Shown here: positions 30,576 to 58,080 of the stretch, in pieces | Numbering within the stretch: position 1 is the stretch's first letter | How the letters are laid out: each line of letters begins with the position of its first letter | NCBI GenBank assembly: GCA_046563655.1 | Contig: CM102286.1 | Location: 7,068,001-7,132,000 of the forward strand | Direction of reading: 5' to 3' | Source of the DNA: Yuukianura sp. NJ FZ-2021 | Taxonomy: Eukaryota | Length of the DNA: 64,000 bases | Notes under the pieces: model-generated | Told to the model about the DNA's origin: nothing | Databases searched by the model: none | The model's input: the letters and a program-made list of their open reading frames with translations, nothing else | Position numbers and translations under genes: made by a program

Positions 30576-32536
30576 TTAGTAAATCCTATTTATCAGAGCA
30601 ATTGTATGGACGTCTACATTCCTAAGAAGGCTAGAAGTTACTTGCACAGTCATTTTGTATTTGGCAAATTTAAAGTGGTTGTGTGAAATTGGCTGGAACT
30701 GGGAATCGAGCGTGTTCAAACTTGGTGCCATCGGGTGATTAGCACGCATGCCTCGAGCGGCCAATTTGAACTTTACAAATTTTGGTACAAATTCTGTTTC
30801 TTCCTTCATTGTCTGAAAATTCTCGGAACGTATTACCCCGCATACTTCCCATCCAAACTCCGCCGTTTTGTTTCCTGTTTTGCGGAACCCAGTAAATGCA
30901 ACCAGTGCGTACACTCCATTTTCCTCGGTAAATTTTTCTGAACCGGCGAACTGATACTTTAAGGCACAGCAAAGGTGATTGTGACATGCATGTACTGTAG
31001 AAGAGTCATTACGCGGGCGCAGCAACACACTGGAATAATTTTGGAGATCTTCTTTCAAAACATGAAAAGCAGAGGGTGGAAGGTATTCTGACCGAGTTTT
31101 ACGGGCTGACAGTGGTGCTTGAAAAATCGGTTGTATATGTGGCATAACTGGAACTTCGGATACGACCAACCTTGATCCTGAATGGGGGTCAAATGTGTAG
31201 TTAAGTGGTCCTGCTCCCCCGGAAAAAATTCCGCTGCCCAAAGCGCCTCTACTTGGTTCATGATATCCCGCCACAAGCAAATTTGCATTGGCGCTCATAG
31301 CCCACATTGTATTTGCTTGTGGAGCTAGAAATTAACACGAATACTTAGCATCAATTTTAAAACAATTTTGAAGAATTTTTACCAGTTAGGAATGGAATTT
31401 CATCAACCCAGGCTGTTGTGGTCACAAAATTCTTGACGCCCATGCGCACGAGTTCCACAGCAGGATGCTCAAACATGAGATCGAAACAAATGAATGTTCC
31501 GAAGATCACGCCAAAATCAGTAGCAAAGGTCACATACTCAGGTTTCCGCGGAGCGTCGAACTGGTTTTCAAAGTACAAATTGTATTTGTGGTACCTGGGT
31601 TTCATTAATATAATTATTTTCATATATATTTGAATTCTTGATAGTTTGAGTTTATGAAAATTCAATGTTTGTTAATTTTCACCTACTTTGCAATTATTGT
31701 TCCGCTGCGGTCAAAGACAACATTTGTATTGAAGTGACAAATTCTTTTGTTTTGCCCGCATTTGCTCTCTAAATTGCTATTTGAGATTTGGATTTCACCG
31801 AGGTTGACGACAACGTAAATCTTGTTGGTCATTGCTGCGCAAGATAATTGCCGCAAAACCTAGAAAAAATCAAATGAACAATTTTGTTTCATCTTTAGAA
31901 GCAACCTTTTAAAAAAATTTACTTTTTTACAAACCATATTTGAATTTATCATCAGGCAAGGATTTTCTCCAACTTCCGGCACTGGAAGTAAGTACGACCG
32001 GACTCCGATGCGGTCTGCTGGAATATGAAGTGACGTCAACCCATATTCTGGAAACACTACTAAATCTGCATTCTAAAAAAATGATTTTCAGCATTGTGGT
32101 TTCACAGGGTTTTTCCGTTGCTTAACACTTACGTAACTTTTTGCTTTTCTAATGAAGTCCACAAACGCATCGGCGTTTAATTTCAAAACACGCTCGGGTA
32201 ATTGGGGACCCAGATTCCCAGCGACAGGCATGTACTCCACCACTGCTGCTGTATATGTGTCTCTACTCTAGAAAAATTAAAAGTTAGATTTTCTATAAAC
32301 GAGTTCTCCAAATTAGACAAAAAAATCGGAATTACGTTTGTCCTTAGTTCAACTGCGCTTTCCGAAAACTTTAATTCGACACGAACATATTTTGGGAGCC
32401 GGCGACCATAATTTAAGGAAATACAGGAATAACAAATGCATAAACTTACATTTCCTTCCGCAAGGAGATTTGAGGAATGCAATAAACTAATAGTTATTAG
32501 TGTTGTCCATGTTGTAAACTGCAAGGTCAACTCCAT
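30576..32536 (-). CDS. Vanin-like / pantetheinase-biotinidase family amidohydrolase (multi-exon)
   Basis: Nitrilase-fold catalytic motifs FPEYG, YHKYNL, FICFDL; TTAWVDEIPFL; C-terminal vanin domain CHNHLCC; signal peptide. Confidence 0.9.
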
Positions 32537-34826: not shown

Positions 34827-35790
34827 ATGTCAACATTTGAATTTTGAATACCATTGTGTACCTTATGGAAAATTAGGTTAGGCTATTTTTCTGATAACAA
34901 AACTTTCCCATACTCTGTACTGCTGTAAAACCAATGTGCTAATTATTTTCTTAATTGTTCTGGCCTCAGGTAAACTAAATGATAATACTCTAATAGTTAC
35001 TGAAAATACTTCAAGACTGAATACTGTATTACGAAAATAGAGTTTGGGTTTTAGAAATTCATGTGCTAAAACATAAAAGTGTATTTTTGAAACAACATTT
35101 CATATTTTTGTACTGTAGAAACTTGTGAATTTTAAGTATTGTGTCGAAATTAAAAAACAATCGTATCTTTTTTTTTATGAAAGTCGTATTTTCTCTTTTT
35201 TTCCCCAAAAATTCGAAAACATGTAAACTGTCTATGAATGATACGGTCTTTTTTTTTCAATGCAAAAAAAAAACGGTTGAGGAATTACGCTTGGCGTTGA
35301 TCTGCTGATCTGTATTCCAACAGTGAGACGATATGTGGGGTTGATAATTAAATGTTTTGACCTGATCTTACACGAGTTAACAACAGGATGAGGATGTGGA
35401 TCTTTGAAAGTGAGAGTTAAAGTGTAAAAAGGGAGATCAGAGTGCATATAAGAGAGAACAATGATTGCAATTTGCAATTTTCAATTGGGGAAGGAGAAAG
35501 TTCAATCCTATTCATTTGCCCACTTACTTTGGGATATGATATTATCAAATTCCACAGAGATCATTTTCTCTTGGCTTCTTCACTTTGAAAGTTAGCTTGG
35601 TATCTTTTGCCATAAGGATCCTCGAGTCTAACAAAGTCAAACGTCAACCTCCAAGGACTCATCTTCATTGCACTTTTAGGCACGCCATTGGCACAGAGAC
35701 CCACTTCTAACGCCGTGTACTATTTCCTACACAAAACTCACTATTCTAAATGACTCCTACAACGCTACTCCAAATTCACTTTGGCAAAGG

Positions 35791-36497
35791 ATGAGGTTGA
35801 GTTCCATTGTCCTCCTACTCGTGGTCTCGATTCAGTTCAACTCCACATTCTACAGTTCCTCAGTCGCCGACGCTTTTGTAACAATTCCGACGTGGGTGGC
35901 TTTTGGAGCCATTACAGCCGCAGTAAAACTGAAACTGATTTTGGTCAAAATCATGTTCGCATTAAAAACAATGGGAGTCGGTAAGGCTCAATTTTTTTTA
36001 AAACTGAGATGAAAGTTGAATTTTGGAATTGTCAATTGAATTCTTCAATATTTCTTTCCAGGCAGCATTCGGTTCAAACGCTCAGCTCATTCCGATTTCG
36101 GAGTACAGTTGTACAACGTTGCAAATTCAGAGTACGGTGATTTACTTGATGCGTGGACTGAACTAGAGGTCACGGCTGGACGACGAATAAGTTTTATTCT
36201 TGACAGTTGCATTTCTGCGGCAGTCGCGGGAAACACTAAAGAAAATTCCAAACAAAGAAGGCAAGAATTGATTATAACATTTCCAAAAATTGCAAAACAG
36301 CATTCGAGAAAATTCCCGCTGTAATTGTTGGTTTTTGTTTCAGAAGAAGGTCAGCGACCTCCGGTAGCCAATCAAATGTACAGTCCAAATTCGTTAGCTC
36401 CATCATTGGCTCAATAACTGGAAGTATTGCGGCGTGCCAAATTCTTGAAGACGCTTTACAAATACATCACAAGAATCAAGAGTCATTGCATCCGTAA
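35791..36497 (+). CDS. Small secreted precursor: signal peptide, Lys/hydrophobic segment, RFKR and RRRR sites, 2 Cys (4 exons, one GC-AG intron)
   Basis: MRLSSIVLLLVVS...KLKLILVKIMFALKTMGVG|SIRFKRS...ANSD|CISAAVAG...KQRR|RRS...AACQIL...HP*. Introns 35982-36061, 36132-36206 and 36261-36343 (GC donor). Later exons less certain. Confidence 0.6.
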
Positions 36498-36848
36498 CCA
36501 ATGCAAAACGAGGAATAAATGTGTCGCTAAAAATGTCATCCCTATTGGGGTTACAACAATGCTGTAATATCGACACTCATGTTAAACATTACCATATTTA
36601 CACTGTGATACAGTTGTGTTTGCTTTCCTATTACGTATGCGTTTAAAAGTGAACAATAATAATTGTAAGTAAATTTCTAATTAAAATTTGGTGCCAATAC
36701 AGACTGGAATTCCAACTCTAGCATTTCAGAAGTTGCTTTGCAGCTCGCAGATTATGAAGAAGTTATTTGAATAAATTTTTTATACATGTCTCCATTGCAG
36801 TATTTTTTGAGTTTCTTTGGAATTTTTTCTTTAAATAATGGAGACAAC

Positions 36849-37470
36849 GGTTCCATGCCATTAGGCCCTATGAATTAGGCCCTCAGCCAACAGGCCCTAT
36901 GAATTAGGCCCTAAACAATTAGGCCCTCACTGCCTTTAGGCCCTAATGAATTAAGCCCTCAAAATGTTTAGGCCCTAAATCTTTACGCCCTCAGTACATT
37001 AGGCCCTCACAATTTTTAGGCCCTCACAATTTTTTAAGCACAGTGTTGGTAAACTCGACAATAGGCTCCATTTCCGTATATGCCTAACCACAACACATAT
37101 TAGAGACATAATCGAAACATCAATACAAATTCGTAATTTGCATAAGGCCATCGAAGATGCCCTAAAGCTTTGGTATTGAAACGGCTAATCACTACTGCCA
37201 ATTTCATAACCTAACGCCGCGCCTTCGGCGCGGGTAAATCAAAGTAAACGTATAAAAGGCTGCCGGTATGAATATATGAATCAAAATGGTTTTTAGGGCC
37301 TAAAAATTGTGAGGGCCTAATGTACTGAGGGCGTAAAGATTTAGGGCCTAAACATTCTGAGGGCCTAATTCATTAGGGCCTAAAGGCAGTGAGGGCCTAA
37401 TTGTTTAGGGCCTAATTCATAGGGCCTGTTGGCTGAGGGCCTAATTCATAGGGCCTAATGGCGTGCAACG
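36849..37470. mobile_element. Non-autonomous foldback DNA transposon with ~176-bp inverted arms built from TTAGGCCCT repeats, with target duplication
   Basis: Arms 36849-37024 and 37295-37470 are near-perfect reverse complements, each with 11 (T)TAGGCCCT-like units. Direct repeat (G)GAGACAAC on both sides (8 or 9 bp). Confidence 0.92.
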
Positions 37471-38391
37471 GAGACAACTGAGATAGTTTTTTGATATCAA
37501 CGAACTATTTTCATAACTATTTAAAAGAACTTACAGATGCATCACAGCTTAATAAAAACTACGATTATGCACAACTTTATTGGAATATGTAAAATTGACA
37601 GTTACAGGAGTGTCGTTTTTTTTTCATTAATCTCCAACAGCTACAAAGGGCAAATAATTTCACTTTCACAAATTTCGCATACTTAAGAATTTTTTTTCTT
37701 AAAATACGAAAAAATAATAATTTACTGTAACTTTTAGGTGCAAATTTAAGGCCAAGTGTCAAAAGATTCTCATGCAGATCCTACAAGCACGTCTGTAGTA
37801 CCCCCACAATTACTTAAGGAAAATGGTTAAGAAACTTCGAAAGCTGAGATTAATTCTCATGGAATTAAATGTAAAAATGATTTAACGCTTGCGTTATACC
37901 GATAAGTATGGCTTAATTAGTATTGCAATCAACGTAAATCTCCGCCTCCTCTTCACACTCAATAGGTTCTCCTGAAAAATCCATTGTTTTCATTTGCTCT
38001 GGTTCATTCTTCTGTACATGCTCCGGTGTACAAAGATTTATATTAATTATAAGCCTCAAGATTTGTATCAAATAGACACAATATTTTGTGCCTGCTCTTC
38101 CATTAAGTTAAACACACTCCTGCTCCTCAAACACAGTTTTCGACATATAGCAAAAGCTAAGTTTCAAAAAAAAAATATAAATCAAGTCTTGAAATTATGA
38201 AAGCAAGGTTAAGTGACCATGCAAGTCAGACATTCAACCTAAAACCAGTACAACACGGTCCTTGTCCCTCAACGTTGTTGGAAAAAGAAAACTTGGTCAA
38301 TTTTATTCTAGGTTTGAACGGTTTAGGAGCTAGTTTTAGTTTGGTCTTTAACCAGTTCACAACAACCTTGACAGTGTCAACTGCTGACGTC

Positions 38392-40953
38392 ATGAAGATT
38401 CATAGCTTGGTTTGGTCGGCAGGGTCATGTATCCTTTTGTGCTCATTTGTCAACGAAGGTGGAGCAACGCTCATGCTCGGCAGCATGATGCTTGCCGCCA
38501 AAACTGGACTCATGCTGGGCAAAATGGGAGTCGGTGGAATGATGATGATGTTGTTGGCGGGTAAGTTTGAATTACAGAGAGAATTCGTTTTTACTTGAAA
38601 CTAGTTGCGGCACTTGTCATCCTTCTGTCGCTACATCTCAGAATTTTACTAATTGAGAGCCGTTTTGTTTTCAGCTCAGCAAGGTTATGATAGCGGTGGG
38701 TCTAGCGGTTATGGTAGGAAACGATTCATTCGAAGTACTGGAGCAAAGGAAAACGAAACATCGACTCCGAAGTTAGCTTCGGCTGAAGAAATTTTGGTAA
38801 CTGAAAGAATGGTGCGTCAAATTGATTCGACGCTTGATAGTTTGACGTGTATCCCGAAGTTTGTTTGCGGAATGAACGCTGAACCGCCCTCAAAGAAGAC
38901 GAGCATCATCAACGACTACGGACACCTTCTCAAAGTCCTTTTCGAGTAAGTTGCACGTTCAAAATAAACTTTCGGAAAAAAAGTTATGTGAAATCTCAAG
39001 TCCATAATTTCACTTTTGTGTTAAAGAGTACAGAATGCTGAATTTTATTTTCTTACATTATGATATTATTTTGTATTTACTTAATTCAGTGCTTCGGTGC
39101 TTTTTACTTTGATTTGTTTTTAATTTACATTTTTGTTAATTCAGCGATGATGAAGATGATGATTCCGAGGAAGACGGCAAGAAAGGCAAAGGAAAGAAAG
39201 AGAAAGTTGGCACAGACTCGGCCGATGAAGATGCGGTTCTGGAAGATATGGTCAATGACGAGCTAATTGAAGAAGATCCGGCACTTTTGCCGTTCATTTT
39301 GAAAGATGTCGTGAAAAGACACAGGCCTAAACCGGGGAACAATGCGGATTATGATATGCCACCCAACCCCATGCCGTTCTACCCCAGACCACCCCCACGA
39401 CACTCCCCTCTCTCAGGCCTCAGCGCGTACTTACCAAAAGTGAAAGCTGGTTTGGGCACCAAAGTTTCCGATTCTGATTTCGATAGTGACCCGTTCTTCT
39501 CTGGATTTCGGAGCCTCAAGGCTTTGTTGCAAAATGACACCAAAGGTGAACACAGAATGGTCCCAATTTTAGCCACCGATGAACTACCATCGGACGTGAA
39601 GATGACGATGGCTGAGCGAAAAAGTTTCATTCGAAGGAAAGCAAAAGAATTGGAAAGTGTAAGTGTTTTTCAGCAGTGTTTTTTAATGCTTGAATAAACT
39701 AAAAAATGTTATTAAATAATTCTTCTTATCTAAAAAAATATCATAGACCAAGGATGGTCTTGAGAAATACCGAATTGCTGCAGAAGTGGGTCGGCAGCTG
39801 AAAAACAAGAAGGATTGCGGAGAAGTATTCAAGAAATGTCCGTACAAATGGGAAGAAGTGACTGGCGTTGTTTCCAACATCAGAAATGTTATCACCAACC
39901 ATCCAGTTATTACGGGCAAGCAGCCAACCCCAGAGAAAGTCGTGTATATGGTACTCAAAAACAATTGCTACCCAGCGCAAAAATTCTACATTCAATTTGC
40001 TTACAGTTAAAAGATTTCTGAATTTTAATTAACTAATCAACTGTTTTTCAGAAAATGAGTAATGGTGGAAGTATGAATGATAGCCTTTTGAGCATTGCTG
40101 CTGCTGGAGTTGGCGAAGAGGGGACTACAGTTGTGCAAGATTTAGGAAATGGCACACTTATGGAAATCTCCATGAAATTGGTTCCAATGAAAAAGGCAAG
40201 CTGAAATTTTTTTTTTAAATTTTCAAAAATGTCACTGATTTAAAAAAAATTGTGTCACATTTTTAAACTCCTGTATACGCTTCTTTCAATTAGGTCGATA
40301 TATTGCCGTCTCCTCTTGTTGAGAACTTAGGAATGAGTCCCAACGACTTCAAGCGAACTAACAAAACTGCTAAATATCCAACTGATACAAGATTTTCCAC
40401 CCAGAAGCCACCTCAGTTGACGGAAGATGACCTTGACGCTGCTGCGTTAGCTTTGCAAAACAAAAATATGAATAAGGCAGGTCCTAAGCAAGCAAAACGA
40501 CCACCACGTCCGAAACCCGGAAAAGTTCCCGTTTTAAAAGAAGAGCCAGCTACTTTGCCCACTCCGATTTCGGAAGACGATGAATTCGAAGATGCTTTTC
40601 CAATTCTCCTCAAGCAAATCCAGAAACTTGCACCAACTAGCAGCAGCAACAAGCAGCCAGCGAAGGAAAAAGATCAAAATGATGAAACAGATGATGAAGA
40701 TGATGATGATGATGAAGATGACGATGGAGACGATGATGGGGATGATGATGACAATGAGGAATCGGAAGCAGCAAGAGGTCAAGCCTTCCGACGTCGGAAT
40801 AATGCTCCATTTTCATTTCTTCGAAGAACAACGTTTCCTGTAAATCGGAGACACAACCGAAGCGGAAATAAATTGAATCCAGAAACAATCGAAGAACCGA
40901 AAGTTTCTCGGTTTTCTTCAACATTCACAGCAGCCGATACGAAGAGTCTTTAG
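38392..40953 (+). CDS. Secreted DM4/DM12-like 4-Cys precursor with Met/Gly-rich segment, G-RKR site and Asp-rich tracts (multi-exon)
   Basis: MKIHSLVWSAG signal; LMLGSMMLAAKTGLMLGKMGVGGMMMMLLA; GYGRKR; CIPKFVCGM; YRIAAEVG...CGEVFKKCPY; terminal exon with poly-Asp. Confidence 0.75.
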
Positions 40954-41641
40954 GATTCAGTTGATGCGGGGGTTATTGTTTTAAAAACACAAAATTCATT
41001 TAAAATACGTTTTGTTAAAATATCAAAAACACAATCGGTGCAGTTACAGTTTTTGTTACAGTTTAATTTAAGTTTTTATTTTTTAATTAATTGTTTTGTT
41101 AATCTAAACTATTCAAGTTTACACAAAATAAATGTTTTCCAAATCTTGTGAAGATAGAAAGTGAAACTTCCATTTTTTCCTGTCACTTTAGATAACCCTG
41201 TATTCACACGAAAAAAAACAATCACAAAAGAACAGGTTGGGTAACCTGTAAAATTGAAAGTAATTGTGAAAGTTATAGAGAATGAAATAATCATGCAGTA
41301 TTCCCTATACACTTGACCATTTTCATTGCCAAACACAGTTTCTTGGCACTTTTCATGCAAAGGGGCTTGCCTATGTTTTCGATGAAATGTTGAACTTTTA
41401 TGACTTGCTTTTCTATTTGACCTTCATCACCTTCTTGTGCCGATGACCCTAACTTAAGTAATTAGAAGGCTACAATGGAAGAATAAGGGAAGGGGGGCTT
41501 CTCACTGTTTTCTCTTCCTTTTCCCACGTCTTCAAAAACCAATTCTTCCTGCAAGAGCGACACAGTTCTTTGGAAGACCTCGGCCGAAGCGTCTTCTCTT
41601 GAATTTACTTCTGTAGTAACGTGGACACAGCGGAAGTTAGG

Positions 41642-43496
41642 ATGAAGATCGCAGTTTGTGTAGCTGTCCTCGGCGCGTTTGTTGGTAATTTTACGATTGA
41701 ATTAAATTTATGACAATTTTATTGCATAAGTTAGTGTTTTTTAATACAAGTTCATAAGTAGCATTTTGTTCAGTGCAAATTTGTTGTTAAAATTTCAGGA
41801 CCTGCGCTGTGTGGGGTTCTAACGCTGACATCACAGGGAATCCAGTACCTAAACAATGAGCAGTTCGCTGCCATGCAGGATCCTTACGGCGTAGGGGCTA
41901 CGCAACAAGGGCAGCAAGCAGGCGCAGGCGGTTTATGGTAAAATTTAAAAAAAGAAGGTTTTCTTTTTTAATTTCTCATCTTTTAAGCGTAGTGAGGAAA
42001 TTTAAATAGAGAAATTTGCACACGAGTTTGTAAAGGAAACTTTACTTTAACCTCATCTTGTCATCGTGCGTCTGAAACACAGAAACAGGTTTTCATTGGA
42101 TACTTTTCTCTTGAATTCGGTGCCACTAGGCCATCGTTTTGTCAACTTTCTTTGATGTGTGCTAGATCCAATTGAATTAGCATATACAATTAACCGACTA
42201 AACTTATTCAAATAATATTGACTTTACTTGGTTCAAATCAAAGGAAAATCATTTTTCCATTTCAGGGGTGGTGATGGAGGTACTGGTGGTGGAGCGGTTG
42301 CTGGTCATGGTGGGGCAGGACCTCCGCAAGTCCAGTATGATGATGACGAGGAGAACCAATCGGAACCTGATGATACTGATGACGACGTTGACGATGTAGA
42401 GGAAAAAGACGATGACGAGGAAAGTGAGGAAGTAGCTGATGCTGATGCTGATGTTTTGGCTGACGATGTCCCAGAAGTGAAAAGTACCAAGTACTCTGTC
42501 AAAAAAGCCCCGAAGGCTTCCAAAGGAACTAAAGCCACCAAGAAGTCCCAGAAAAAGAAGAAGGTCAAGGAGAGCGAAGAAGCTGATGACGACGTAGAAC
42601 CGGAGGCTGACGATGCTGATGGAGAAGAGAAGCCGCGTCCCCCGCCACCAATGCCCGATGTCCTAAAACAAGAAATGTCCATGAGTCAATACGACTCGTC
42701 TCCAGGTTACGGCGGACCGAGTGCTGGAGGCCAACAGCCAGGCGGAGCTAGTCCACCACTTCTGTCCAGGATGGCCACATTCCTTGGGTCGTTGCTTGGA
42801 GGACGCACTGGAGTAGGAAGTGATCCAATCTACATGAATCGTAATGCCAAATCGATCTCGTCTGAAGTCTCTGAAGCCTCCATGGAGCCACTCGTCAGGA
42901 CAAAGCGACAGATGAGGTTGGGCGGCGTCCAAATGCAGCCATTCTATCATGTAAGGAACAATATTAGAACTATGGTCCGACGCCCGCCCAACACAAAACT
43001 AGCACCCACTCCCGTAGATGACTTTAATACGCTAAGTGAGAAGAATTCTAAACCAATTAAACTTTTTATGGAACCGTATTCAGCTCCAGCCACCTACCAG
43101 TCTCCACCACTAAGTCCAGCTCAAGCAGTCCGTGCTCCTCCAAGTACAGGCGGTGTGAATCCAGGAAATACTGGAGTTGGATCTTCTGGACTTGGACAGG
43201 GGGTACCGAAACAATCAAGCTCTTCTAACAGTGGTGGTGGAAACAAGCAAGGATCTTCGGGCGGGAACAAAAAGAACAATTCAAATAAGCGAGGCGGAAA
43301 CAAAGGCAGTGAGGAGGGCAGCAGTGAAGAAGATGATGATTCAGATGAAAATAGTAGCGACCCATTTCTAAATTATGGCGAAGAAGATGAAGAAAGTAAT
43401 GCAATTGGCGTGGGAGCGGATTACGGTGGTGACGACAGTGCAGCAGAGGATGACGACGATGACGAATACGACGATGAAGATGATGCCCGGAGATAA
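41642..43496 (+). CDS. Secreted low-complexity acidic/Gly/Pro-rich protein (3 exons)
   Basis: MKIAVCVAVLGAFVG|PALCG signal, 1.2-kb open terminal exon, alternating Asp/Glu-rich and Lys-rich blocks, RTKR site. Confidence 0.75.
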
Positions 43497-44537
43497 CGTT
43501 GCGTAGAGATATTGTTACCCTCGAGGTTGGTTTAGCTCATTTACTTCGCCTTGTTTCAGTTGTAGTCACAAGTTATTAATGTTATTCAATTTTCATTGTT
43601 GCCTCGAATTACTTGACACGTTTTATATTGCACTGCACCTAATATTAAACTAAATAGTATTTTATGCACAAACTAGTTCGTTTAATGAAGGCATCATCTT
43701 ACAAAAAGAAACTGCTGATGCTAATATTACTACTGTTGAAGTATTAGAAAAGGTGAACCTGAATTTGTCGAAAAGCGTTGTGGTCAATCGTAAATCGGAA
43801 AATGTGCTAGGGGTATTTTTGGCATCAGGAGAAATACGCTCACTTTTATACACATGCACGTAGGTCAACATATTTTTACTAAAGTTGTTTTCATATTTTC
43901 ATCCCCCACGCTCTGCACCAGAATTTGATTTAAAAAACAATTTGATAGCGCATACGCTTTTGTAACAAAAAAAAAGCTTCCGTTCCAATGACTCGGAAGC
44001 AAATGCTTGAAGCTCGGAAGCTAAAGGAATCTTCTTGTTTGATTCGGTTTTGAAAAGTAATTTTCACATAAAGTAATCAAATGAGTTCAAATTCCTTGAA
44101 AACCATTTTCCTGTTACACCGACATTTGGTCCCAGATCAGTTTTCGATTATGTTTCACTCCGTTGTTTGCAACAAGAAAATTTTAACAAACAACAAGGCT
44201 ACGCCCACATTATAAATATGAGGTGTTTCAAAAATTCAAGCTAAAACCTCAGTAATCACGGAGGAATTGGAAACTTCGTTGAGCTGATTCTACATAGAAT
44301 TTTAAATCTAATACAAAGGAAAAGTCAAATTTCGACGGCTACTTCCTCTCTCTTAACTTTCCTAAGGGCGCATGCCGAAAGTTTTGATTTTTTGTGAATT
44401 TTCAGTGATGAATAGACTGTTTCCGAATATTGCTTTGCAGTAGTAGTACAGTTCAAAGTCCACTTTTTCTTTGCAGCGGTACACAAATACATATAGCTAG
44501 CATGTCTAGAGATTTAATGCCCGTTTTTATCAAAGTA

Positions 44538-46196
44538 CAGTGGCGGCCAAAATTATTGGGACACCCAGTATAAAAATTTTTAAACAACGATAACTTTTTA
44601 ACGAAGTGTCATAATTAATAACTCGATACGTCATTTTATTCAGAAAATAGTTCTTTTCAATCTCCCAAGTTTTTAGAACTTGAAGTCAAGCGGTTTATTT
44701 TATGGAATTTTTTAAACTCAAAACGTCAAAATTCTCGCGGACAAAATTATTGGGACAGCTGGGGTTTTGGAACGAAATCGACAGTTATTGGCATTAGTTT
44801 TCCATCGGTAAGTCACCTAACTTAATTTTTAGTACTTACTAACACTTGTAGTTAATTGTTGATTAGTTTTTCAGAGATGGTTGGCAATATCAAGGAAGTT
44901 CCAGGACCGATACGCGACCTAATCATTCAAGGTTGGGTTGGTGACGAAAATGGTACAAAATCAGTTCGTCAGCTGTCCGAATTGTACCACGTACCCAAGT
45001 CAACAGTACATAACATCATACAAAGGTACCTCAAGACCGGCCATGTCGAAAACCAAGCCGGAAGAGGCCGTAAACCAATTCTTTATGAGAGGGAAGTTCG
45101 CCTGATCACCCAGAAAGTGAAGCTGGACAATCGAGTAAGCGCCGTAGAACTGTCCAAAACACTCAAATGTGACCTTGACACCGAAGTCAGCCCCCGTACT
45201 GTTCAAAGAGTACTTTGCAATCAGAATTTGAGAGCTTTCAAGCCGTTGCGAAAACCGCTTGTGTCAAAGAAGAATGAAGCCAAGAGATTGAAGTTTGCAA
45301 AAGAACACGTTATGAAGCCGGTATCGTTTTGGGAAAGAATTTTATGGTCGGACGAGTCAAAGTTCAACGTGTTGGGGTCAGATGGACGAAAATATGTCCG
45401 AAGAGGTATTGGTGAAGCCTTAAAACCAAAGAACCTCAATGTGACTGTGAAACACGGAGGAGGCAGTGTCATGGTTTGGGGCTGCATGGCTTCAAAAGGG
45501 GCTGGAACCTTGGAATTTATTAACGGAATTATGGATAAATTCGGCTCACTTCGTGTCAAGGTCACTTTTGAGTGTTTTGGACAGTTCTACGGCGCTTACT
45601 CGATTGTCCAGCTTCACTTTCTGGGTGATCAGGCGAACTTCCCTCTCATAAAGAATTGGTTTACGGCCTCTTCCGGCTTGGTTTTCGACATGGCCGGTCT
45701 TGAGGTACCTTTGTATGATGTTATGTACTGTTGACTTGGGTACGTGGTACAATTCGGACAGCTGACGAACTGATTTTGTACCATTTTCGTCACCAACCCA
45801 ACCTTGAATGATTAGGTCGCGTATCGGTCCTGGAACTTCCTTGATATTGCCAACCATCTCTGAAAAACTAATCAACAATTAACTACAAGTGTTAGTAAGT
45901 ACTAAAAATTAAGTTAGGTGACTTACCGATGGAAAACTAATGCCAATAACTGTTGATTTCGCTCCAAAACCCCAGCTGTCCCAATAATTTTGTCCGCGAG
46001 AATTTTGACGTTTTGAGTTTAAAAAATTCCATAAAATAAACCGCTTGACTTCAAGTTCTAAAAACTTGGGAGATTGAAAAGAACTATTTTCTGAATAAAA
46101 TGACGTATCGAGTTATTAATTATGACACTTCGTTAAAAAGTTATCGTTGTTTAAAAATTTTTACACTGGGTGTCCCAATAATTTTGGCCGCCACTG
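44538..46196. mobile_element. Tc1-family transposon rearranged into a palindrome (two 5' ends), 1659 bp, TA flanks
   Basis: ta|CAGTGGCGGCCAAAATTATTGGGACAC ... GTGTCCCAATAATTTTGGCCGCCACTG|ta. 44538-~45192 is repeated inverted at ~45543-46196. Inner direct repeat AAAATTATTGGGACA near 44743. Confidence 0.95.
44877..45734 (+). pseudogene. Truncated chimeric Tc1 transposase ORF
   Basis: Paired-like HTH region, GRGRKP, KPLVS, WSDESKF (first catalytic Asp), KHGGGSVMVWGC. The frame then runs into the inverted arm, so the second Asp and the Glu are absent. Confidence 0.88.
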
Positions 46197-47208
46197 TATG
46201 GACTTGCCAGCTTGCACATTTGACCTCAAAATTTACTTTATTAGATTCAAGCAGCATCTGAGATGACCTTTTGATTATCGTTTTAACATAAATATTGGGA
46301 GTTCATTAAGTGAGTTTCAAATTTTTTCTTCTTCTCCCATGATTGGGAATTGTTTATGTTTATGAGTTCTGTGCAGAGAAAGACGAAACAAACTTTTGTA
46401 GTCGCTAATATCTATTATTTTCAAATATTGTTACATATTGTTTTTATCTTGTGGATTTGAATTTGTTGATGTTTTCAATTCTAATTTGACAGTGCTGTGA
46501 TAACAGAAACTAACAGTTTAAATTGGAGTATTCTAAGAATCCTCGGTTTTGAGATTTACCTGATTACAATTTTTTTATTGTAATCTATTCCAGGGTGTTT
46601 TGCACTTGTTCGCAAAATGTTTCTTTCAACTTCATGGGTATACTAGAAAGCATTGAATTTGGAACAGAATCGAGCACAACCAACCTGCTTTTATGTGCCT
46701 GTTTAAAAACTAAGTAGGGAAATCAGAATTTTTGATTTTTCACACGCACTATACTTCTGTATGTCGGTAAGCACTAATTACCAGTGAAACTTGCGGGTTA
46801 CAAAGAAATTTGTAACTTTTAAGGTTATCTTTCAGGATCGAAGATTGTACAATAATATGTAACTATGTATTAATTTCCTGTTTTCCCTTGCATGAGGGGT
46901 AGAAGAACAGAAAGTGTTGATATTGTTCATTGCGACCTTAGAAAGTGACCACACTTACATTCTTCAACTGTGAGTTTTCAAGTACTCCCACTTAAATTTG
47001 CTTCTTCAATTTCAATTAACTGAATGTCAGTCACAAGTGCTTCGGTAGTCATCTTCATGCATTCGTACAACGCAGTATTTTTTGTTCAACTGGCAACAAA
47101 ATTCCCTTCACCTTGCAACAGTTAAATTCACGTGTGTGGAGCAATTTACGTTTATTTCGCTGACGAAATTTGAAGTGAAAATATTAAAAGAGTGGTCAGA
47201 ATTTGGCA

Positions 47209-48639
47209 ATGGAGTTTGGGCACAAGAGCAGGCATTTTCCAGCGTCACTTTTCTTGCTACTCTACTGCTGTAGCTGGAGTGAAAGTTTATCCTGCAAGAG
47301 CGCTTCTACTGCCGTTGCGTCATTGGTGCTTACGAGTGCGTTTTAAGTTCCTTAAAGTTATTTTTTCAATCAATCAATTTTTGCAGTTTTACTGAGATTG
47401 ATTTTCTAAACAGTGACGCCACCAGCGGCGATGTCGCTTCCCTTTGGAGTTCCGTTTCGCTACCAACCGCCGAGAGGCAGAGATGATATGGAAAGTTCCC
47501 CTGAAGACGAACCCGCGGAGGAACCAAAGCCCCCAAGAACAAAACTTTATTACAAGTTTGCAGCTCAAGTCCTTGAGTAAGTAACTGTAAATAACATAAT
47601 TTCAGCATATTTGGCATGGCAAGTCCGTGATTTTAACATGGGTTGACATATCGTTTTTATTCTACTTTGACCTTGGTGCTCAACCTGTAACAAAAATTTC
47701 GGTTTCCAATTTTGCGAAGAAATATGGTCAGATTACCGTACTCATCATTGACATAGAAAACGAAAGTTCGTACATGTTATGATTATGAATCACTGCACTT
47801 TCGTTAGAGATAGCTTAGGAAAACTTGCAGTACCCTCACCCTTCAACCCTCAAAGTTGCATTTTGAAAAAATGTTTACAACAAAAATGAGAAAAATGAAA
47901 AGCAATGTTGTCTGGCAAGGTTTCCAAAGTTCAATTGCTATTGTGCAGAACCACCCACGTTTCACTTTCGTGACCCATTTCGAAATTGGTTTTATTAAAC
48001 CACTCAAATTATTCTCTACGATGACACTAATTTGACACTTAAATTTCTACTCAACCAAAACAATGAAAATAATTAACAAAAAAATCTTGTTGCAGTTGGG
48101 TTTTCAACGAACTTGATGACAGCGAAGAGGCATTTCCGGTGACACTCGACCCTGTCCATCCCATTTTATCTTCCGAAGAAGAAGAAGTTGAGGATTCTGC
48201 AGAAGCTGAATCGTCTAAACTGGAAAAAGTTGCAAAAGCAACTGAAAAACAGAACTCAAAGAAAAATGCAAAATCCCGATCACGCAGAATAGGCGACACC
48301 AAGAAATCGTCTAAGCGCAAGAATAAAGTTAGTAAGAAAGATGTAGCGATGTACAAGTTGAGACCTCTTGTTGAATATGATGACACGCTTGAAAAAGCTT
48401 CTCTTCCCGAACTAAAGCAAATGTACCATCAGATGAAGAAGGAAGACGAGGGATTTTTCAATTTCAAATTTCTGACGAGTGGACTTTCTTCGTCAGTGCT
48501 CAGATTTGGCAGAAATATGTTCAGGCGAGTGTACTGCGGATGGAGTGGCTATAATTCGTACTGTAATCCGAACAACCATGACGGTCCAGCTTCTATGCTG
48601 TTTGATGAAGTTCAGTACCCTAACCGGATTAAGTATTGA
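47209..48639 (+). CDS. Uncharacterised, probably secreted protein (3 exons)
   Basis: ATG 47209 with hydrophobic N-terminal exon; exon 2 (...YYKFAAQVL) splices in phase (GA|T) to exon 3 (WVFNELDD...YPNRIKY*). Start codon uncertain. Confidence 0.62.
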
Positions 48640-49807
48640 GCGACTATTGAAAAGCAATGTGACCTGAAAGAATTTTGATTGTTTTTTGTGTTAAACACCA
48701 CTACATGTTGATTCCTATTGCGCTACCAGTAATTATTTATTCCTAAGTTAGTCTGCTATGAACTTGATCCTGTCTGTATTTGCAAGTCCCAATGTTTGAA
48801 ATTTATTAACCTGACTTAGCGAGGAGCAGGCTACTCACCTTATTAAATTTAAAACAAAAGAATTTTGACAATAAAATGAAAATGATTGCATGTTTTCAAC
48901 AAATGAAGAAATAACTTTCACTTCGCAGCCAACAAGTGAATTCGGAATCCAAATGATTTTGTCCCAGAACCAGACTTAAATTTGATCAAAATACAGAAAT
49001 TAAATTAGTGACGAATCAATTTCTGTTTCCTTGAAAAACAGTATGTTTTGGTTTTCCATTCGGCTCAAAAAACAACGAAATTACAATAAAAATCCTTCGA
49101 GCCCAGTAATTGAAATTAGGTTTCAATTTGAAATAATTATTTTCAGCCGTGTAAAAAGTTGCGTTTTGCTTCCGGAAATAGATTTGACGATCTAGGGCAT
49201 TTCATGTGTGGTATTGGATATACGAACAACGCTGGAATTTCACTAAAACACAACGATTCATTGGTTCATCACAAGAACAAAAAAGGCATCTTCTTCAATC
49301 TCTCTTTTGTTCTTGATCTTTGCACAACTTTTCACTGTGACCTTAGCAAAGTACTGGTCTTGACCGCCATTGTGTATGCCTGAAAGTGTCTGAATTGCAG
49401 CACTACATGTGAGGGTAGGTTCAGGCAATATTTAAAACTGATTAGCACAACATAATTTGACTTAATTAGCAATTGTTGTTTGAGACAAAGAACTGAAACA
49501 TTTGACACCATCACAATTAATGTCAAATGCATGGGAGGAGGTTTTGGAGCTGTTTCAACCTTCTGGGAATTTTCTTTTATTTGCAATAGCCACACTGTTA
49601 ATAGGAAATGGGCTCAAAATTAGCAGCATGTCGAGTACAGAGCGTCAACCTCCAATTACATAATCTGTTACTTAAGAACGCCTACACTGTTTCAGTTACA
49701 AATAAATTGTGCAGCGTTGCTCAAAATCCGTTTCTGACTTCCTAGTATATAAAGCCATCGAGATCAACTCTGACCCAGTTTATGAGCTCTTGTCCTCCTT
49801 CCTAGTA

Positions 49808-51500
49808 ATGAAGGTGCTTCATATTAGTGTCCTGTTAATTGGTGCTCTACAACCTCTTATATTACTTGTGTTCCTTGGAAATGTTCAGGAGACTGAAGGA
49901 ATTTACGCGTACACGTTAAAGGGCTATGTCCAGGACATACGACATAACCCAAGACTCCTCGTCGGTGGATGGGCGTTGAAGAAAGCATTAAAGTTAAAGA
50001 AACTGAAACTTCTGTTTAAGCTCAAGAAGAAACTGAAACTGAAGTTCATTGCCAAGAAGATCCTTCTCAAGTTTCTTATTGGTAAGTACATTGGAAATGT
50101 AATTCTTGAAAAACTTTTCCTTTGATAACGTAACTGAAGACGAATTCAAGTGGGCCGAGTTAATTATTAATCGAACGTGTGGAACACCTTAAAGTGACTT
50201 TTGGTCCAAAACTTTTTAGGAAGGAAGAAGAGATCGACGGATGAAGATGAAATTGATCTTCCAGAACACGTTCTGCCTGAAATTCATGATAACGACATTA
50301 TGCCATACTTTTCAATGGCCAGTGAGTTTGATACGGATGGCTGTCTTCCGAAAAGTATCTGTGAGGCCATGGCTAGAGCCAATCGGACATACCAAATGAA
50401 CATGTTTGAACGAACAGTCACACAGGATTTGTAAGTTTCGTTTTTAATCCGTAGCATAGCTCGGAATTTCGACGGGGTTTCCCTGCTTTCAGCCAGGCAG
50501 GAAAAATACGATGTGTTACATAGGCGACGAAATGAAAAAATGCGTCGGAGTGAAAAAGCTCTCATGTTTTATTTTTTTCTGAAAAACTACTTGATGAAAA
50601 AAGTCAATTTTGAGCGACAAGGTGAATGAGGTTCACTGGCAGCCAAAACAGGTCGTTAACTCATTGCAAAAGACGCTACGTACATAACCAACTTTTGAAG
50701 CCGATGAACTTCAAAATACAAAGTTTATAATTGGAAATTTAGTTTTTCGTTAATTGGGCTTCATTTGATGCAAACAAAGGAAATTGACATAATTCTATGA
50801 ATAGACGGATCATACGTTTTACAAAGTTTTGTTGAAAAGGAAACGGCCTTTCGGTACTCCTGTGTTTACAATTTAGTCATGGTTTGTTACAAAGTTTTTT
50901 AATTTGCATATGAACGAGAAAATTGGCGTTGGCGTTGAAATAAAAATAAAAATGAATTTCATTTTCAATTTTTTGATAAGAAGTTCTTCGGGGCCTCCCT
51001 TTGAAATTAAGATCTCTGAGAGAAGAAAGCAAAGAAGTTCTAAAAGTTTAAAACTGAAAACACTTCGGAATCCTTTCCCTTGAAGTTGTTTCAAATTGGC
51101 CTTCTGCTTCTCATTCAATTTCCTTAATTGGCTGTTCTGTTTAAATTAAAATTTAATTTTTAATTTTCTGTAACTTCAAAGGGCAGTGGAGAGACCAGAG
51201 GACACTTCATCTCCTTCCTTTGTGTACGAATATGCGGCTTATTATGGCAGAACTACAAGAGATGAAAAGGCATGTGCCAGCCTCTTTTCCAATTGCCACG
51301 AGGCTCCACAAATGCTCAAAAAGTTCATGGACGAAACTTTTGTATCGGATATTTGTGAAGGGCCGGACCAATTGATTCCACAGGGAACAAATTCACTTCC
51401 ACTGTATAACAACGATGGAGACACTGGAAGCATCGCAAGTCAAATTGTTAAAGGTAGAAACGGCGGGAAAAGTGGAGACATTACGTTTCCTTTGTACTAA
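49808..51500 (+). CDS. Secreted precursor: Lys/Leu-rich cationic peptide + G-RKKR + DM4/DM12-like 4-Cys module (3 exons)
   Basis: TATATAAA near 49747; signal peptide; WALKKALKLKKLKLLFKLKKKLKLKFIAKKILLKFLI-G|RKKR; CLPKSICEAM; YEYAAYYG...CASLFSNCH. Confidence 0.8.
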
Positions 51501-52285
51501 ATTTGAGCCAAAATTTACACCGCTTATACACAAGTACAATTCTTTTACCACTGCACTTGCTTTCCACGCTCCTGCAAATTTTGTTTAAAAAAACATGTAA
51601 TCCTGCGTGTGAAATTTTTGATTTTTAAATTGAAACATAAATATTTACGAAGTATTACATTACATAATCTAAGTTTTAAAACTTCAGTCAGGCAGTGTAT
51701 TGAAGTTACCAAATAGTAATACAATCTATATTGTTCGTGGGTTTTTTTTTCTACTTTTCATAAGTGAGTGCCAAAATACACTAAAAAATAATTTCAAAAT
51801 ATGTTATAGTCAACTTGCCAGGCCCACTGCGACGTGTAAGTAAGTGATTCGTTTGCAAAAAAACTTAAAGTGTTAAATTTTTAACACTTTTGATTTATTT
51901 ATAACGTCAAATGAGGTAGAAATTTCATACAGTTGAAATTTCAAGTGAAATTCGCCATATTCAAGATAAAAAATTGCGCAAAAATATGAACCATCATCTT
52001 TTTAATATTGTTTGGTCCTGTGGGAAGAAAGAGAAAGTGGAAATGCAAATTTACCCACGTCACAATGGGATATTCCAAGTGTTTCTTAACGTGTACCCCT
52101 AACTCACCCGTTCATAATGAAGCTCAATTCATGTACGTCCGTGTAGCCTCAATTCCTGAAATAAATAAATGACAGCGGTCGTCTGCATCTCACTTTTCAA
52201 AAGTGTCAACTGCAGTTGAGTCAGTCACAATAATATTCCAACCAGAAGTTCATTTCATAAGTTTTCCAATTCAACAGAAAATAAA

Positions 52286-53334
52286 ATGAAAACAAGTACA
52301 ACTTGTTTCATTTTTATAATAATAATTGTTGTGGTGAGTAGTAGCGGTGAATTTAGCGATCAGAGCCAATTACCTCCCGAGTGGAAATCCAACAGAAATC
52401 CCAAATTTTTACATTTTTTGAAACAATTTTTTGAAAGTTACCCTACTACCACCGCAACTTACCTCAGCAGTAGTGGCTTTAACAAGGGAAAGTATGGTGA
52501 CGAAGCGGGAAATTATGATCAATACTTTGTCAGTGCGGATCCCTACAACCAGAATCAACTTCTGAGTGCCGTGGACACCCAAAAACAGGGCCCGTCCCTT
52601 GACATTGCTGCTAGTGAACATAGCGCACAAGGGGAATCAAGTGAAAGTGGCATTAATTCAATGAACACCCTCTTTACTGCACTAATTGGAGAAGACACCT
52701 CTTCTCCCTCATCCATAATTTCTAACATCTTAAGACTCGGAACAGGATCCATGGAGAAGGTTTTACAGCGCGTCAATTCCTTTGACTCCCTTAAGTGTAT
52801 TCCTAGGCTCCTCTGCCAAACTGTTGCACAGCGGCAGCTAAATTTTGCTAAGGTAGAGGTCACGACCTCGACAGTCAAGCCGAAAATGACTTCTAGATTT
52901 GATGCGCTTCCAATTTATGATTACACACACAGGAATGGAAAAACAATCAAATTCATTGGCGTCGAAACTGCACTTTCACAATTTATGGCGTAAGTTTGCA
53001 CCCTAATTACGCATCATATTGCCTTTTTTGGTGTTGGAATAGGAATATGACTAGATTTTAATTTTTTTTACTGCTTTTCTAAGGATTATGCAATTCTTAA
53101 AATATTTGTGTTAAATTTACTTTTTTGAATTTGTTTTTTAGATTCTTGGACTTGGTCCAACTCAAAAACTGGTCGCTCTACCCTTACTTAAAGGGAGCCT
53201 ATGAAGGGGCCCAAGTGAAGCGTTTGGATGAATGTGCGCAAAGATTTGAAACTTGTCCATTCTCTGACCAGCAATTGGTCTACTATTTCAACAACTACAA
53301 CGGTGGTTTCTTCCAGAACCTTCATTCAAACTAA
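52286..53334 (+). CDS. Secreted DM4/DM12-like 4-Cys protein (2 exons)
   Basis: Signal MKTSTTCFIFIIIIVVVSSSG; CIPRLLCQTV; YLKGAYEG...CAQRFETCPF...YYFNNYNGGFF. Confidence 0.8.
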
Positions 53335-56194: not shown

Positions 56195-58080
56195 TTAAGT
56201 CTGGGCTGACTCCGAATTCTCAGCGGGTGCGGGGGCGGGATCCTCAAAGTTAAGGAGAATTTTCCCAATGTTCTTCCTGTCATGCAGTTTGCCCATTCCT
56301 TCTGTCACCTAAAGAATTTGAAAAGAAAAGCAGTCCCTTTCAAATTCTCTCTCGCTGGAAAACTTTCTTTTGAAAATGTTGAACGTCAGTCGGACTTTAT
56401 TTTGTACCTCTCTGAAGTTAAGTGTAGAGTCAATGACTGGGTGTATCTTTCCCTCTGCCATCAACTTCCAGATCTTGCTCAACCTTTGGCCAATGAAGTC
56501 CTTCTTATCGCCATTTTTGAGGAAGTGGCGCAGATGAAGTCCTCCGACGGTTTTGTTTTCTTCAAACAATTTCAATGGAGAGATCTTTTCCACTTGCCAC
56601 CATGACTTGGCCATTGTGAAGAAACTTTTGGTCTCGCCGGAAACAATGTTGGCAGATCCAAAAAGCATGTACCTTCCGCCGGAAGCCAGAATTGAAATAC
56701 CACGAGCACAGTCCTCTCCACCCTGAGAATCCAAGACGAGGTCAATTCCTGACGGATGTGACCTGCGCAGAAAGCAAATTAATTTTACTCCTGTCGAATC
56801 AAATTAGTATTAAAAATTCAACAAATTTGGGTTACAAACTTTCGAATTTCAGCGACATAGTCCGATCCACGCTCAATCAGAGCTGAAAAACCTTCCAGCT
56901 TTTCCACCTTGCCCTTGGAAGTGATTCCAATGACATTGCAATCTTTGGCCAAGTCCTTCACTGCCAATCCAACAGAACCGCCAGCGGAATGAACAAGAAT
57001 TGTGGAATTCGGAGGTAGGGAGGCGTCTCCTAGCAACAAGTCAGCCACAAGGTAGGCAAGCGTACAAGCCAAATTCTCCATGGAAATTTTTTGGTCAACG
57101 AGCCAAACGAGATGTTCTGGAATTGTGACTTGTTCAGCCCAAGCTCCGAGTTCTGGTAGACCATAAACCAAGTCATCGACCTAGATTTCAAACAAAGTTA
57201 TTATTATAAACAGCATATGGTTTGAAAAGATTTTTTGATTTGTTTGTGATTTGTTATTAATCCTGACGTAAGCATGGGATTTGTCTAGGACTGACCTTGA
57301 CAGAGGTCACGCCTTCACCAACTGCTGTGACCTTCCCAACGCACTCTGTGCCCATGACAAACGGAGTTGGAGAAGAGTCCATCACTCCAAGTCGTGCCAT
57401 TACATCTTGGAAGTTTACGCCGCTAAAAATACATTGATTGAATTCATTAGCTTTGCAAATTTGTGCCTAAAACTGTCCTGGAGTTTGCAAAAACTAGAGT
57501 CCCTCTGTCATTTTTGCATTTTACACAAACTGGTATAACCTACTTTGCAAAAACATTGAAATAATTTAGTAGGTTGATTAGTCATAATTTGCAATTTTGT
57601 GTAACAGAAGCCTCCACATACCATCATGTTAGACATTCGAAATAGCAAAGTTGAATTACAGTTTTACATGGCATGCGCATACGAATTGAGCAGCTTTCAC
57701 TCTATTATTTCTTTCCAGATGCTCGCTTTCATACGCTGGCATCCGCCCAATAACAAATGCAAAATACACACAATGGGTAGGCGAACATGAAACACAGGCA
57801 GTAAAAAAAGCTTTTGCAAAGAGTGTGTCACTGACCTCATGATGACCTTGACATTGACAAATTTCTCTGCTGGCTCAGCCGGAACCGGGCGTTTGACCAC
57901 TTTGACGTTCTTGAGTCCTCCGAATGAGTTGCACACGACGGCAGTCATTTGTTCCTGGGCTTCTTCCGCTGGAGTTGCAGCGACGATGGCCGGTGACGGA
58001 GGGCTGTCCGAGTCCTGTGACATGCTGGAACTGTTAGCAGCAGTCGGCTTTGGCGGTTCTTCGTCTTTTGTGTTCACCAT
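56195..58080 (-). CDS. VAT1L: Synaptic vesicle membrane protein VAT-1-like (MDR / quinone oxidoreductase family), multi-exon
   Basis: AVVCNSFGGLKNVKV, GVNFQDVMARLG, PFVMGTECVG, ILVHSAGGSVG, GETKSFFTMAKSWWQVEKISPLKLFEENK, GKIHPVIDS, LHDRKNIGKILL. Confidence 0.88.

Follow-up and report, generated by a model that had tools for sequence, protein, structure and literature searches.

A palindromic, recently mobile Tc1 family in Yuukianura sp. and the apparent concerted evolution of its arms

Introduction

Derivatives of DNA transposons in which one end is an inverted copy of the other have been described in several families. Seven sublineages of Drosophila mariner MITEs arose by substitution of the element's 5' part for its 3' part (PMC4161770). 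Rpmar49 and Rpmar17 of Rhodnius prolixus (PMC4678618) and Goblin of Aedes aegypti (PMC3814204) also have one end that is the inverted other, for which gap repair or template switching followed by amplification was proposed, and a template switch or fold-back gap repair is the proposed origin of both Goblin (PMC3814204) and Galileo (PMC3573991). The long terminal inverted repeats (TIRs) of Galileo in Drosophila mojavensis were extended by copying of the opposite TIR and are proposed to attract conversion (PMC3573991). Conversion from TIR to TIR was shown at two IS loci, at one mismatch, in work on Wolbachia IS inversions (PMC3004938).

Mu killer (PMC3440606) and the composite Ac insertions (10.1101/2020.01.07.897926) are single loci in which one TIR and the 5' portion of the transposase gene are duplicated in inverse orientation and the promoter region is kept, and for which dsRNA or siRNA and silencing in trans have been demonstrated. 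Read-through from a flanking host gene goes with the Mu killer type and is optional for Ac; the Ac insertions are transcribed from their own promoter (10.1101/2020.01.07.897926). Read-through of Tc1 in C. elegans gives fold-back dsRNA (PMC3878927).

The element described here, a palindromic Tc1 at 44538-46196 (1,659 bp), lies in a stretch of 64,000 nucleotides from the Yuukianura sp. NJ FZ-2021 assembly GCA_046563655.1 (contig CM102286.1, 7,068,001 to 7,132,000), called the window below. Its architecture is already published for mariner MITEs, and the palindromic Tc1 works like those (PMC4161770). As in Dromar7, 11, 28 and 36, the 5' part replaces the 3' part, the TIRs are long and there is one breakpoint per sublineage; amplification in trans, with a partner that is sometimes missing from the genome, is a further likeness to the Dromar sublineages (PMC4161770). 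The inverted 5' portion, the shared breakpoint and at least two independent copies with different flanks, by which 5'-replacement derivatives are recognised, are all present. Unlike the Dromar elements as presented there, it is a DD34E-type Tc1 with 220-bp TIRs, arms of about 655 bp and 1,659 bp in all versus the typical 900-1,000 bp, a length that also exceeds the limit of <1,000 bp for a MITE in the strict sense (PMC4161770).

Rpmar49, Rpmar17 and Goblin duplicate the 3' or subterminal end and are shorter (a 221-bp piece; 54-bp TIRs), whereas the palindromic Tc1 duplicates the promoter region, an intron and a third of the open reading frame (ORF). Galileo and the Wolbachia IS belong to other superfamilies and, in the available portions of PMC3573991 and PMC3004938, conversion is not counted across copies as it is here. 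TIRs built of internal tandem repeats, which define Foldback and Galileo, are not found in the element; it has one 21-nt repeat pair per arm, and its arms, unlike the repeat TIRs of those elements, are transposase-gene sequence. In contrast to the single loci of Mu killer and Ac, the palindromic Tc1 is a dispersed mobile family, known here from DNA alone.

Structure of the element

The 3' half of the element is replaced by an inverted copy of its own first 655 bp. The initial annotation had described two 5' ends placed head to head, and this agrees with the alignment: the arms at 44536-45181 and 45553-46198, TA flanks included, are 99% complementary over 646 nt, and with BLAST the pairing extends to 45192/45543 (657 columns, 99.09%). 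The estimate of about six differences between the arms was also borne out, with four substitutions between left and right arm at this copy (44570, 44772, 44780 and 45168) and, in the last 11 bp of the pairing, a 1-bp gap and one more substitution.

The left arm (44538..45192, plus strand, 655 bp) holds the native TIR, the 5' UTR with an intron candidate, and transposase codons 1-105; the ATG is at 44877 and the arm ends at 45192, which gives the roughly 105 codons per arm of the first description. The native left TIR (44538..44757, plus strand) is 220 bp long, as taken from the parent-type joint reported below, and has 21-nt direct repeats on the plus strand at its outer (44543-44563) and inner (44737-44757) ends, 194 bp apart, which are likely to be transposase binding sites. 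TIRs with such direct repeats go by the label IR/DR. The long TIRs of Bari, about 200-250 bp, also have direct repeats at the outer and inner ends (PMC4877112), with three repeats in Bari and two per end in the palindromic element. A 67-bp intron is predicted from sequence in the 5' UTR (44808..44874, plus strand), with GT-AG ends and a TACTAAC branch motif that are kept in the left arm of all nine copies (9/9).

The spacer (45193..45542, plus strand), which would form the loop of a hairpin, comprises transposase codons 106-222 and includes an AATAAA on the minus strand at 45516-45521. Its length of 350 bp is as first reported; its uniqueness holds only within the element, since the spacer is found in eight full copies. 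The fold-back junction falls at 45542/45543 and, over 45542..45553, differs from the left arm by one substitution and a gap of 1 bp; the junction string quoted in the initial annotation begins at 45531. The right arm (45543..46196, minus strand, 654 bp) is the inverted left-arm copy in place of the 3' half of the parent. It includes a 103-aa ORF with only the N-terminal DNA-binding part (45546..45857, minus strand) and the right TIR (45977..46196, minus strand, 220 bp) with its direct repeats, in which AATAAA occurs on the plus strand at 46035 and 46094. The arm length of about 650 bp stands, but some 220 bp of each arm are the parent's own TIR, so that about 435 bp are newly duplicated. The element is flanked by TA target-site duplications at 44536..44537, of which one TA is retained in the empty allele, and at 46197..46198. 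BLAST agreed with the first description in the intact ends, the TA on both sides and the unrelated outer flanks.

The transposase reading frame

An ORF of 285 aa (44877..45734, plus strand) fuses transposase residues 1-222 to 63 residues read from the antisense arm. It matches Pfam PF01498 (E 1.6e-16), the N-terminal half of a Tc1-type transposase, and Pfam gave no DDE_3 match in this ORF. The best homologs are 52-53% identical and annotated as Tcb1 transposase, the named ones being from Folsomia candida. Homology to transposases stops at residue 222 and only D159 of the catalytic triad is left; D, D and E are present in 6/7 aligned homologs, the seventh ending before the E. The TA duplication, the N-terminal transposase half and the 220-bp TIR with direct repeats are traits of the Tc1 (DD34E) type, while the complete D, D, E triad of an autonomous Tc1 is, by alignment, absent from the palindromic element.

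Codons 1-205 carry 22 replacement and seven silent changes, where the shares of such sites under neutrality are 0.77 and 0.23, and the 285-aa frame with its ATG is intact in 4/8 full copies. One mirrored change destroyed the start codon in both arms of copy L008. With two catalytic residues of the triad missing, the element is unable to cleave DNA by itself, and its ORF is in neutral decay; it therefore moves in trans.

P elements have a truncated-transposase repressor of the KP type. If the palindromic Tc1 were comparable, the 285-aa or 103-aa product would bind the direct repeats, block the transposase and be kept for that reason. The DNA-binding part (PF01498) is indeed complete and the 103-aa frame of the right arm, with its ATG, is open in 6/9 copies. 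A conserved truncated ORF is nevertheless not what is observed: half of the full copies have lost the 285-aa frame, the ratio of replacement to silent changes (22:7) is the neutral one and one copy has lost its ATG in both arms. Protein repression of this kind is thus highly improbable.

Copies in the assembly

A DNA search of the 98.7-Mb assembly gave 24 matches, and all 13 candidates were scored (13/13). Eight full copies, 97.4-100% identical, are distributed over five contigs, C4 being the contig of the element itself. The other matches are a copy with a deleted spacer, a copy without the first 700 bp, two end fragments and a 78% relative of 179 bp, so that, the 78% relative apart, the family amounts to eight full copies, one spacer-deleted copy and three fragments. 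The spacer-deleted copy, L009 (G000:C5:7728671-7730044), has lost element positions 682-968, leaving a spacer of about 63 bp, and its arms are identical over 643 nt. The 78% Tc1 fragment in L023 (G000:C3:3711956-3715133) adjoins an unrelated palindrome of about 1 kb with internal repeats (382-1380 of the locus).

The initial annotation had suggested a search for other copies with the same junction, and every copy that reaches the junction carries it with both of the same scars (10/10), one of them adding a private change. The rearrangement did not take place at 44538-46196 itself; it was inherited from a palindromic ancestor. TA is found on both sides, with different flanks, in 9/9 copies with two ends, and at the intact end of 3/3 fragments. 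The suggestion that the element may be mobilisable in trans is therefore stronger than when it was made, given these nine copies and an exact empty allele. A search for the TIR pattern with at most two mismatches gave 21 ends, all of them in palindromic copies or the three fragments, and none with the reversed control.

A full-length relative that could act as a helper is absent from the assembly as searched with the DNA, the element protein, the TIR pattern and a full-length homolog (48/48 candidates scored), and the C-terminal half of this Tc1 family was not found there. Other Tc1/mariner-like matches in the assembly are at most 30% identical in the C-terminal half, and the TIR motifs of this family occur in 0/9 of the other Tc1/mariner-like loci checked. 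Five Tc1/mariner-like loci (L061, L063, L067, L068 and L069) have short TIRs unlike those of this family, with one TIR shared by L061 and L063.

Contigs from sequencing runs

Four DNA runs (X1-X4) out of five listed were compared as contigs only, and none of the contigs spans the whole element; the five include no RNA run, which is uninformative on expression. The junction is bridged in X3 (45462-45582) and X4 (45152-45582), which are different samples from different studies. These contigs speak against the fold-back assembly artefact of which the initial annotation had warned. It is very unlikely that assembly or polishing produced the palindrome or the likeness of the arms within copies. Sequence support does come from contigs that stop short of the whole element, but the bridged junctions are independent in sample and study, and sites at which the two arms of a copy disagree, which polishing should have erased, persist in 8/9 copies; three of them recur in both L005 and L007, which occupy different loci.

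In X2 a joint from 44534 to 46196 is the exact empty site with one TA, and X1 and X3 have contigs that enter the element from either flank. It follows that the insertion is polymorphic within runs of one sample label, which may be that of the assembly's own source. X1 and X2 also contain, at 44398-44527, a second element-free version with 15 differences and two gaps over about 130 nt, which is either a paralog or a haplotype that has diverged strongly.

Another joint, from 45542 to 45977, was obtained in X2 and X3. The X3 contig of this type, 566 nt long, matches over 81 bases and, after a stretch of about 446 unseen bases, reaches the inner direct repeat. This joint, which is the form in which the parent is seen, would represent a parent-type element with a normal 3' half, with an implied length of about 1,671 bp. 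The depth of the parent-type contig is far below that of the arms in X2 and X3, contig depth being no measure of copy number. Two further low-depth contigs differ from the family by 28 differences in 336 nt (X1 record 6, 45656-45991) and by seven in 115 nt (X3 record 18, 45173-45287); with 6-8% divergence they perhaps come from the parent-type copy or from a sister subfamily that the assembly lacks.

X4 has another organism label. Its contigs leave the left flank at 44300-44515 uncovered, and horizontal transfer was not concluded from this pattern, a hole in contig cover proving nothing. The arm contigs of X4 over 45152-46198 have six plus one differences from the window, which are the seven that separate L009 from this copy, and the X4 spacer carries alleles of the clade L005-L008. 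A contig break with a loose end at 45703, deeper on the outside, hints at a second derivative that has no more than the outer 496 bp in common.

Concerted evolution of the arms

Arms from one copy are more alike than arms of different copies, with a mean distance of 3.2 within copies versus 9.2 between copies (nine copies, 640 nt); only four of the 362,880 possible left-right pairings are as close as the true one. Among the arm variants private to a copy, 8/23 are mirrored in both arms, where 0.014 would be expected from coincident mutation. In the eight full copies 18 of the 38 distinct arm alleles are mirrored in at least one copy. Selection on binding sites cannot explain the 14 of these 18 that lie beyond the 220-bp native TIR.

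The tree of the 19 arms has both arms as sisters in L001 (98/94) and L008 (98/95), with weak support for the pairs of L003 and L006, and in two clades each member is present with both of its arms; the bootstrap had not fully converged. Within the clade L005-L008 the observed pairing sum equals the minimum, which is reached by two of 24 pairings, a comparison of little power. Variants at positions 120, 235, 342/1318 and 1106-1107 are shared by copies that are not sisters, so that exchange between copies at different loci takes place as well, which blurs the picture.

Arm-to-arm gene conversion is the best reading of the mirrored variants, which themselves rest on the assembly. The alternative that several parent copies folded back at the same hot spot, so that the arms of each were born identical, likewise predicts mirrored variants and arms grouped by copy. 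The lower allele density in the arms (38 in 1,284 bases) than in the spacer (21 in 348 bases, p 0.011) does not by itself establish conversion, since repeated origin would produce it too, and the two models fit these densities equally well. Repeated origin would, however, require about six rearrangements that all broke at one point and left one and the same pair of scars, which 10/10 copies have. The match of the parent-type contig stops at 45542, the scars do not look native, and the independently rearranged copies of the Rpmar17 mariner, as far as PMC4678618 was available, have scattered breakpoints. Independent fold-backs are accordingly an improbable source of the family.

For comparison, an unrelated foldback-like element of 620 bp at 36850-37469, with 175-bp arms 97.7% alike and made of short internal repeats, was used as a control; it has 63 matches in the genome, and 40 of 89 candidates were scored. 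Six loci were taken, of which two had no long arm pair and one was mis-delimited. The arms within the four usable copies are 97.6, 92.3, 96.4 and 90.4% alike versus mostly 78-91% between copies. A similar likeness within copies of an unrelated foldback family means that the conversion process is probably general and not special to the palindromic Tc1. The word 'conversion' does not occur in the main text of PMC4161770, and no count across copies of conversion between the two TIRs of one eukaryotic element was found in the literature, of which coverage was incomplete.

Origin and spread

A single fold-back origin, mobilisation in trans and arm-to-arm conversion together form an account that we regard as likely. 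In the ancestor, once, DNA synthesis would have departed from the transposase gene at codon 222 and run in reverse over the initial 655 bp of the same element, through a template switch or fold-back during gap repair, giving an element with two 5' ends and nearly the parent's length. The transposase of the parent, the presumed helper, would then have moved the palindrome by way of its two full TIRs to at least nine TA sites, recently enough that the insertion at 44538-46196 is still polymorphic. Thereafter the arms of each copy would have been homogenised by exchange of sequence, new mutations being copied to both arms or erased, with the stem kept about 99.5% perfect. On this account the palindromic element would be a passenger and any hairpin RNA a by-product.

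Hairpin RNA and silencing

The initial annotation had compared the element to Mu killer; in both, the TIR and 5' transposase sequence are duplicated in inverse. By analogy of architecture a silencer role of the Mu killer kind is plausible, yet a mobile family of many copies depends on the transposase that it would silence. A mobile killer of this sort would use its own promoter to make a transcript over both arms, ending at the AATAAA signals of the far TIR, whose stem would be diced and silence the parent in trans; conversion between arms would keep the trigger perfect, and the idea is compatible with the single-origin account. We hold it as a tentative possibility. The fold predicted for the segment 44770-46060 of the window, its start site assumed, has an energy of -913.5 kcal/mol and an almost continuous stem of about 410 bp, although in silico folding holds for any palindrome. 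No plus-strand AATAAA occurs in the element before 46035. Transcription may, as initially proposed, be convergent from two promoters; the minus-strand AATAAA at 45516 might terminate the transcript from the right within the spacer, and the two directions would then perhaps not be equivalent, such motifs being weak evidence. A promoter scan gave one site versus 1.1 expected, with a bacterial model that is inapplicable to a eukaryote.

Two loci for RdRP and 56 exon matches to the Piwi domain were found in the genome. The RdRP (PF05183) loci, with long open frames, are at G000:C3:3124592-3126190 and C3:3248247-3249859. The absence of a full-length parent from the assembly, and the low depth in X2 and X3 of the parent-type contig (depth again not being copy number), would suit a silenced parent, but the autonomous partner is often lost in ordinary MITE lineages and one third are without a larger relative, according to PMC4161770. 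Mu killer (PMC3440606), the Ac composite insertions (10.1101/2020.01.07.897926) and the Tc1 read-through dsRNA (PMC3878927) are precedents. The family kept spreading and the insertion is still polymorphic, so that silencing would be at best incomplete.

Read-through from a host gene is conjectural at this copy, around which no host exon was found. In the search for a flanking host gene the closest long ORFs stop at 43493 on one side and start near 47410-48073 on the other, and Pfam named 2/11 neighbouring ORFs, neither of which adjoins the element. The two are a vanin C-terminal domain at 30579-31331 and a piece of zinc-binding dehydrogenase at 56312-56803, both on the minus strand. Low-complexity ORFs on the plus strand over 35680-52990 are acidic-, glycine- or lysine/leucine-rich, and the nine tested had no Pfam match. 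Elsewhere in the window a 63-bp direct repeat with 120-bp spacing, 92% alike, lies at 16490-16672.

A more elaborate form of the idea, in which the palindrome hitchhikes on the parent's transposase and, self-repairing, silences the parent with hairpin RNA from its own promoter as copies rise, is rather doubtful. If true, the family would have a built-in brake on copy number, in the manner of a defective interfering particle, and might bring its invasion to a close; conversion from arm to arm would keep the dsRNA trigger perfect with no need for selection.

Conclusions

The palindromic Tc1 family is real and recently mobile. What it adds to the published architecture is that the two arms of each copy evolve together, with a mobile hairpin silencer as a testable possibility. 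The family gives a case in which arm conversion in a dispersed 650-bp palindrome can be counted, roughly one in three of the private arm variants being mirrored. It helps to explain near-perfect derivatives with long TIRs, and arm identity overstates the youth of such copies. The question of how hosts come to recognise a new DNA transposon has one tested answer in maize, inverted duplications made by the transposon. This family, which has several copies of recent date, a site that is polymorphic and a parent that is rare, in a genome with RdRP and Piwi genes, offers a test case in an animal.
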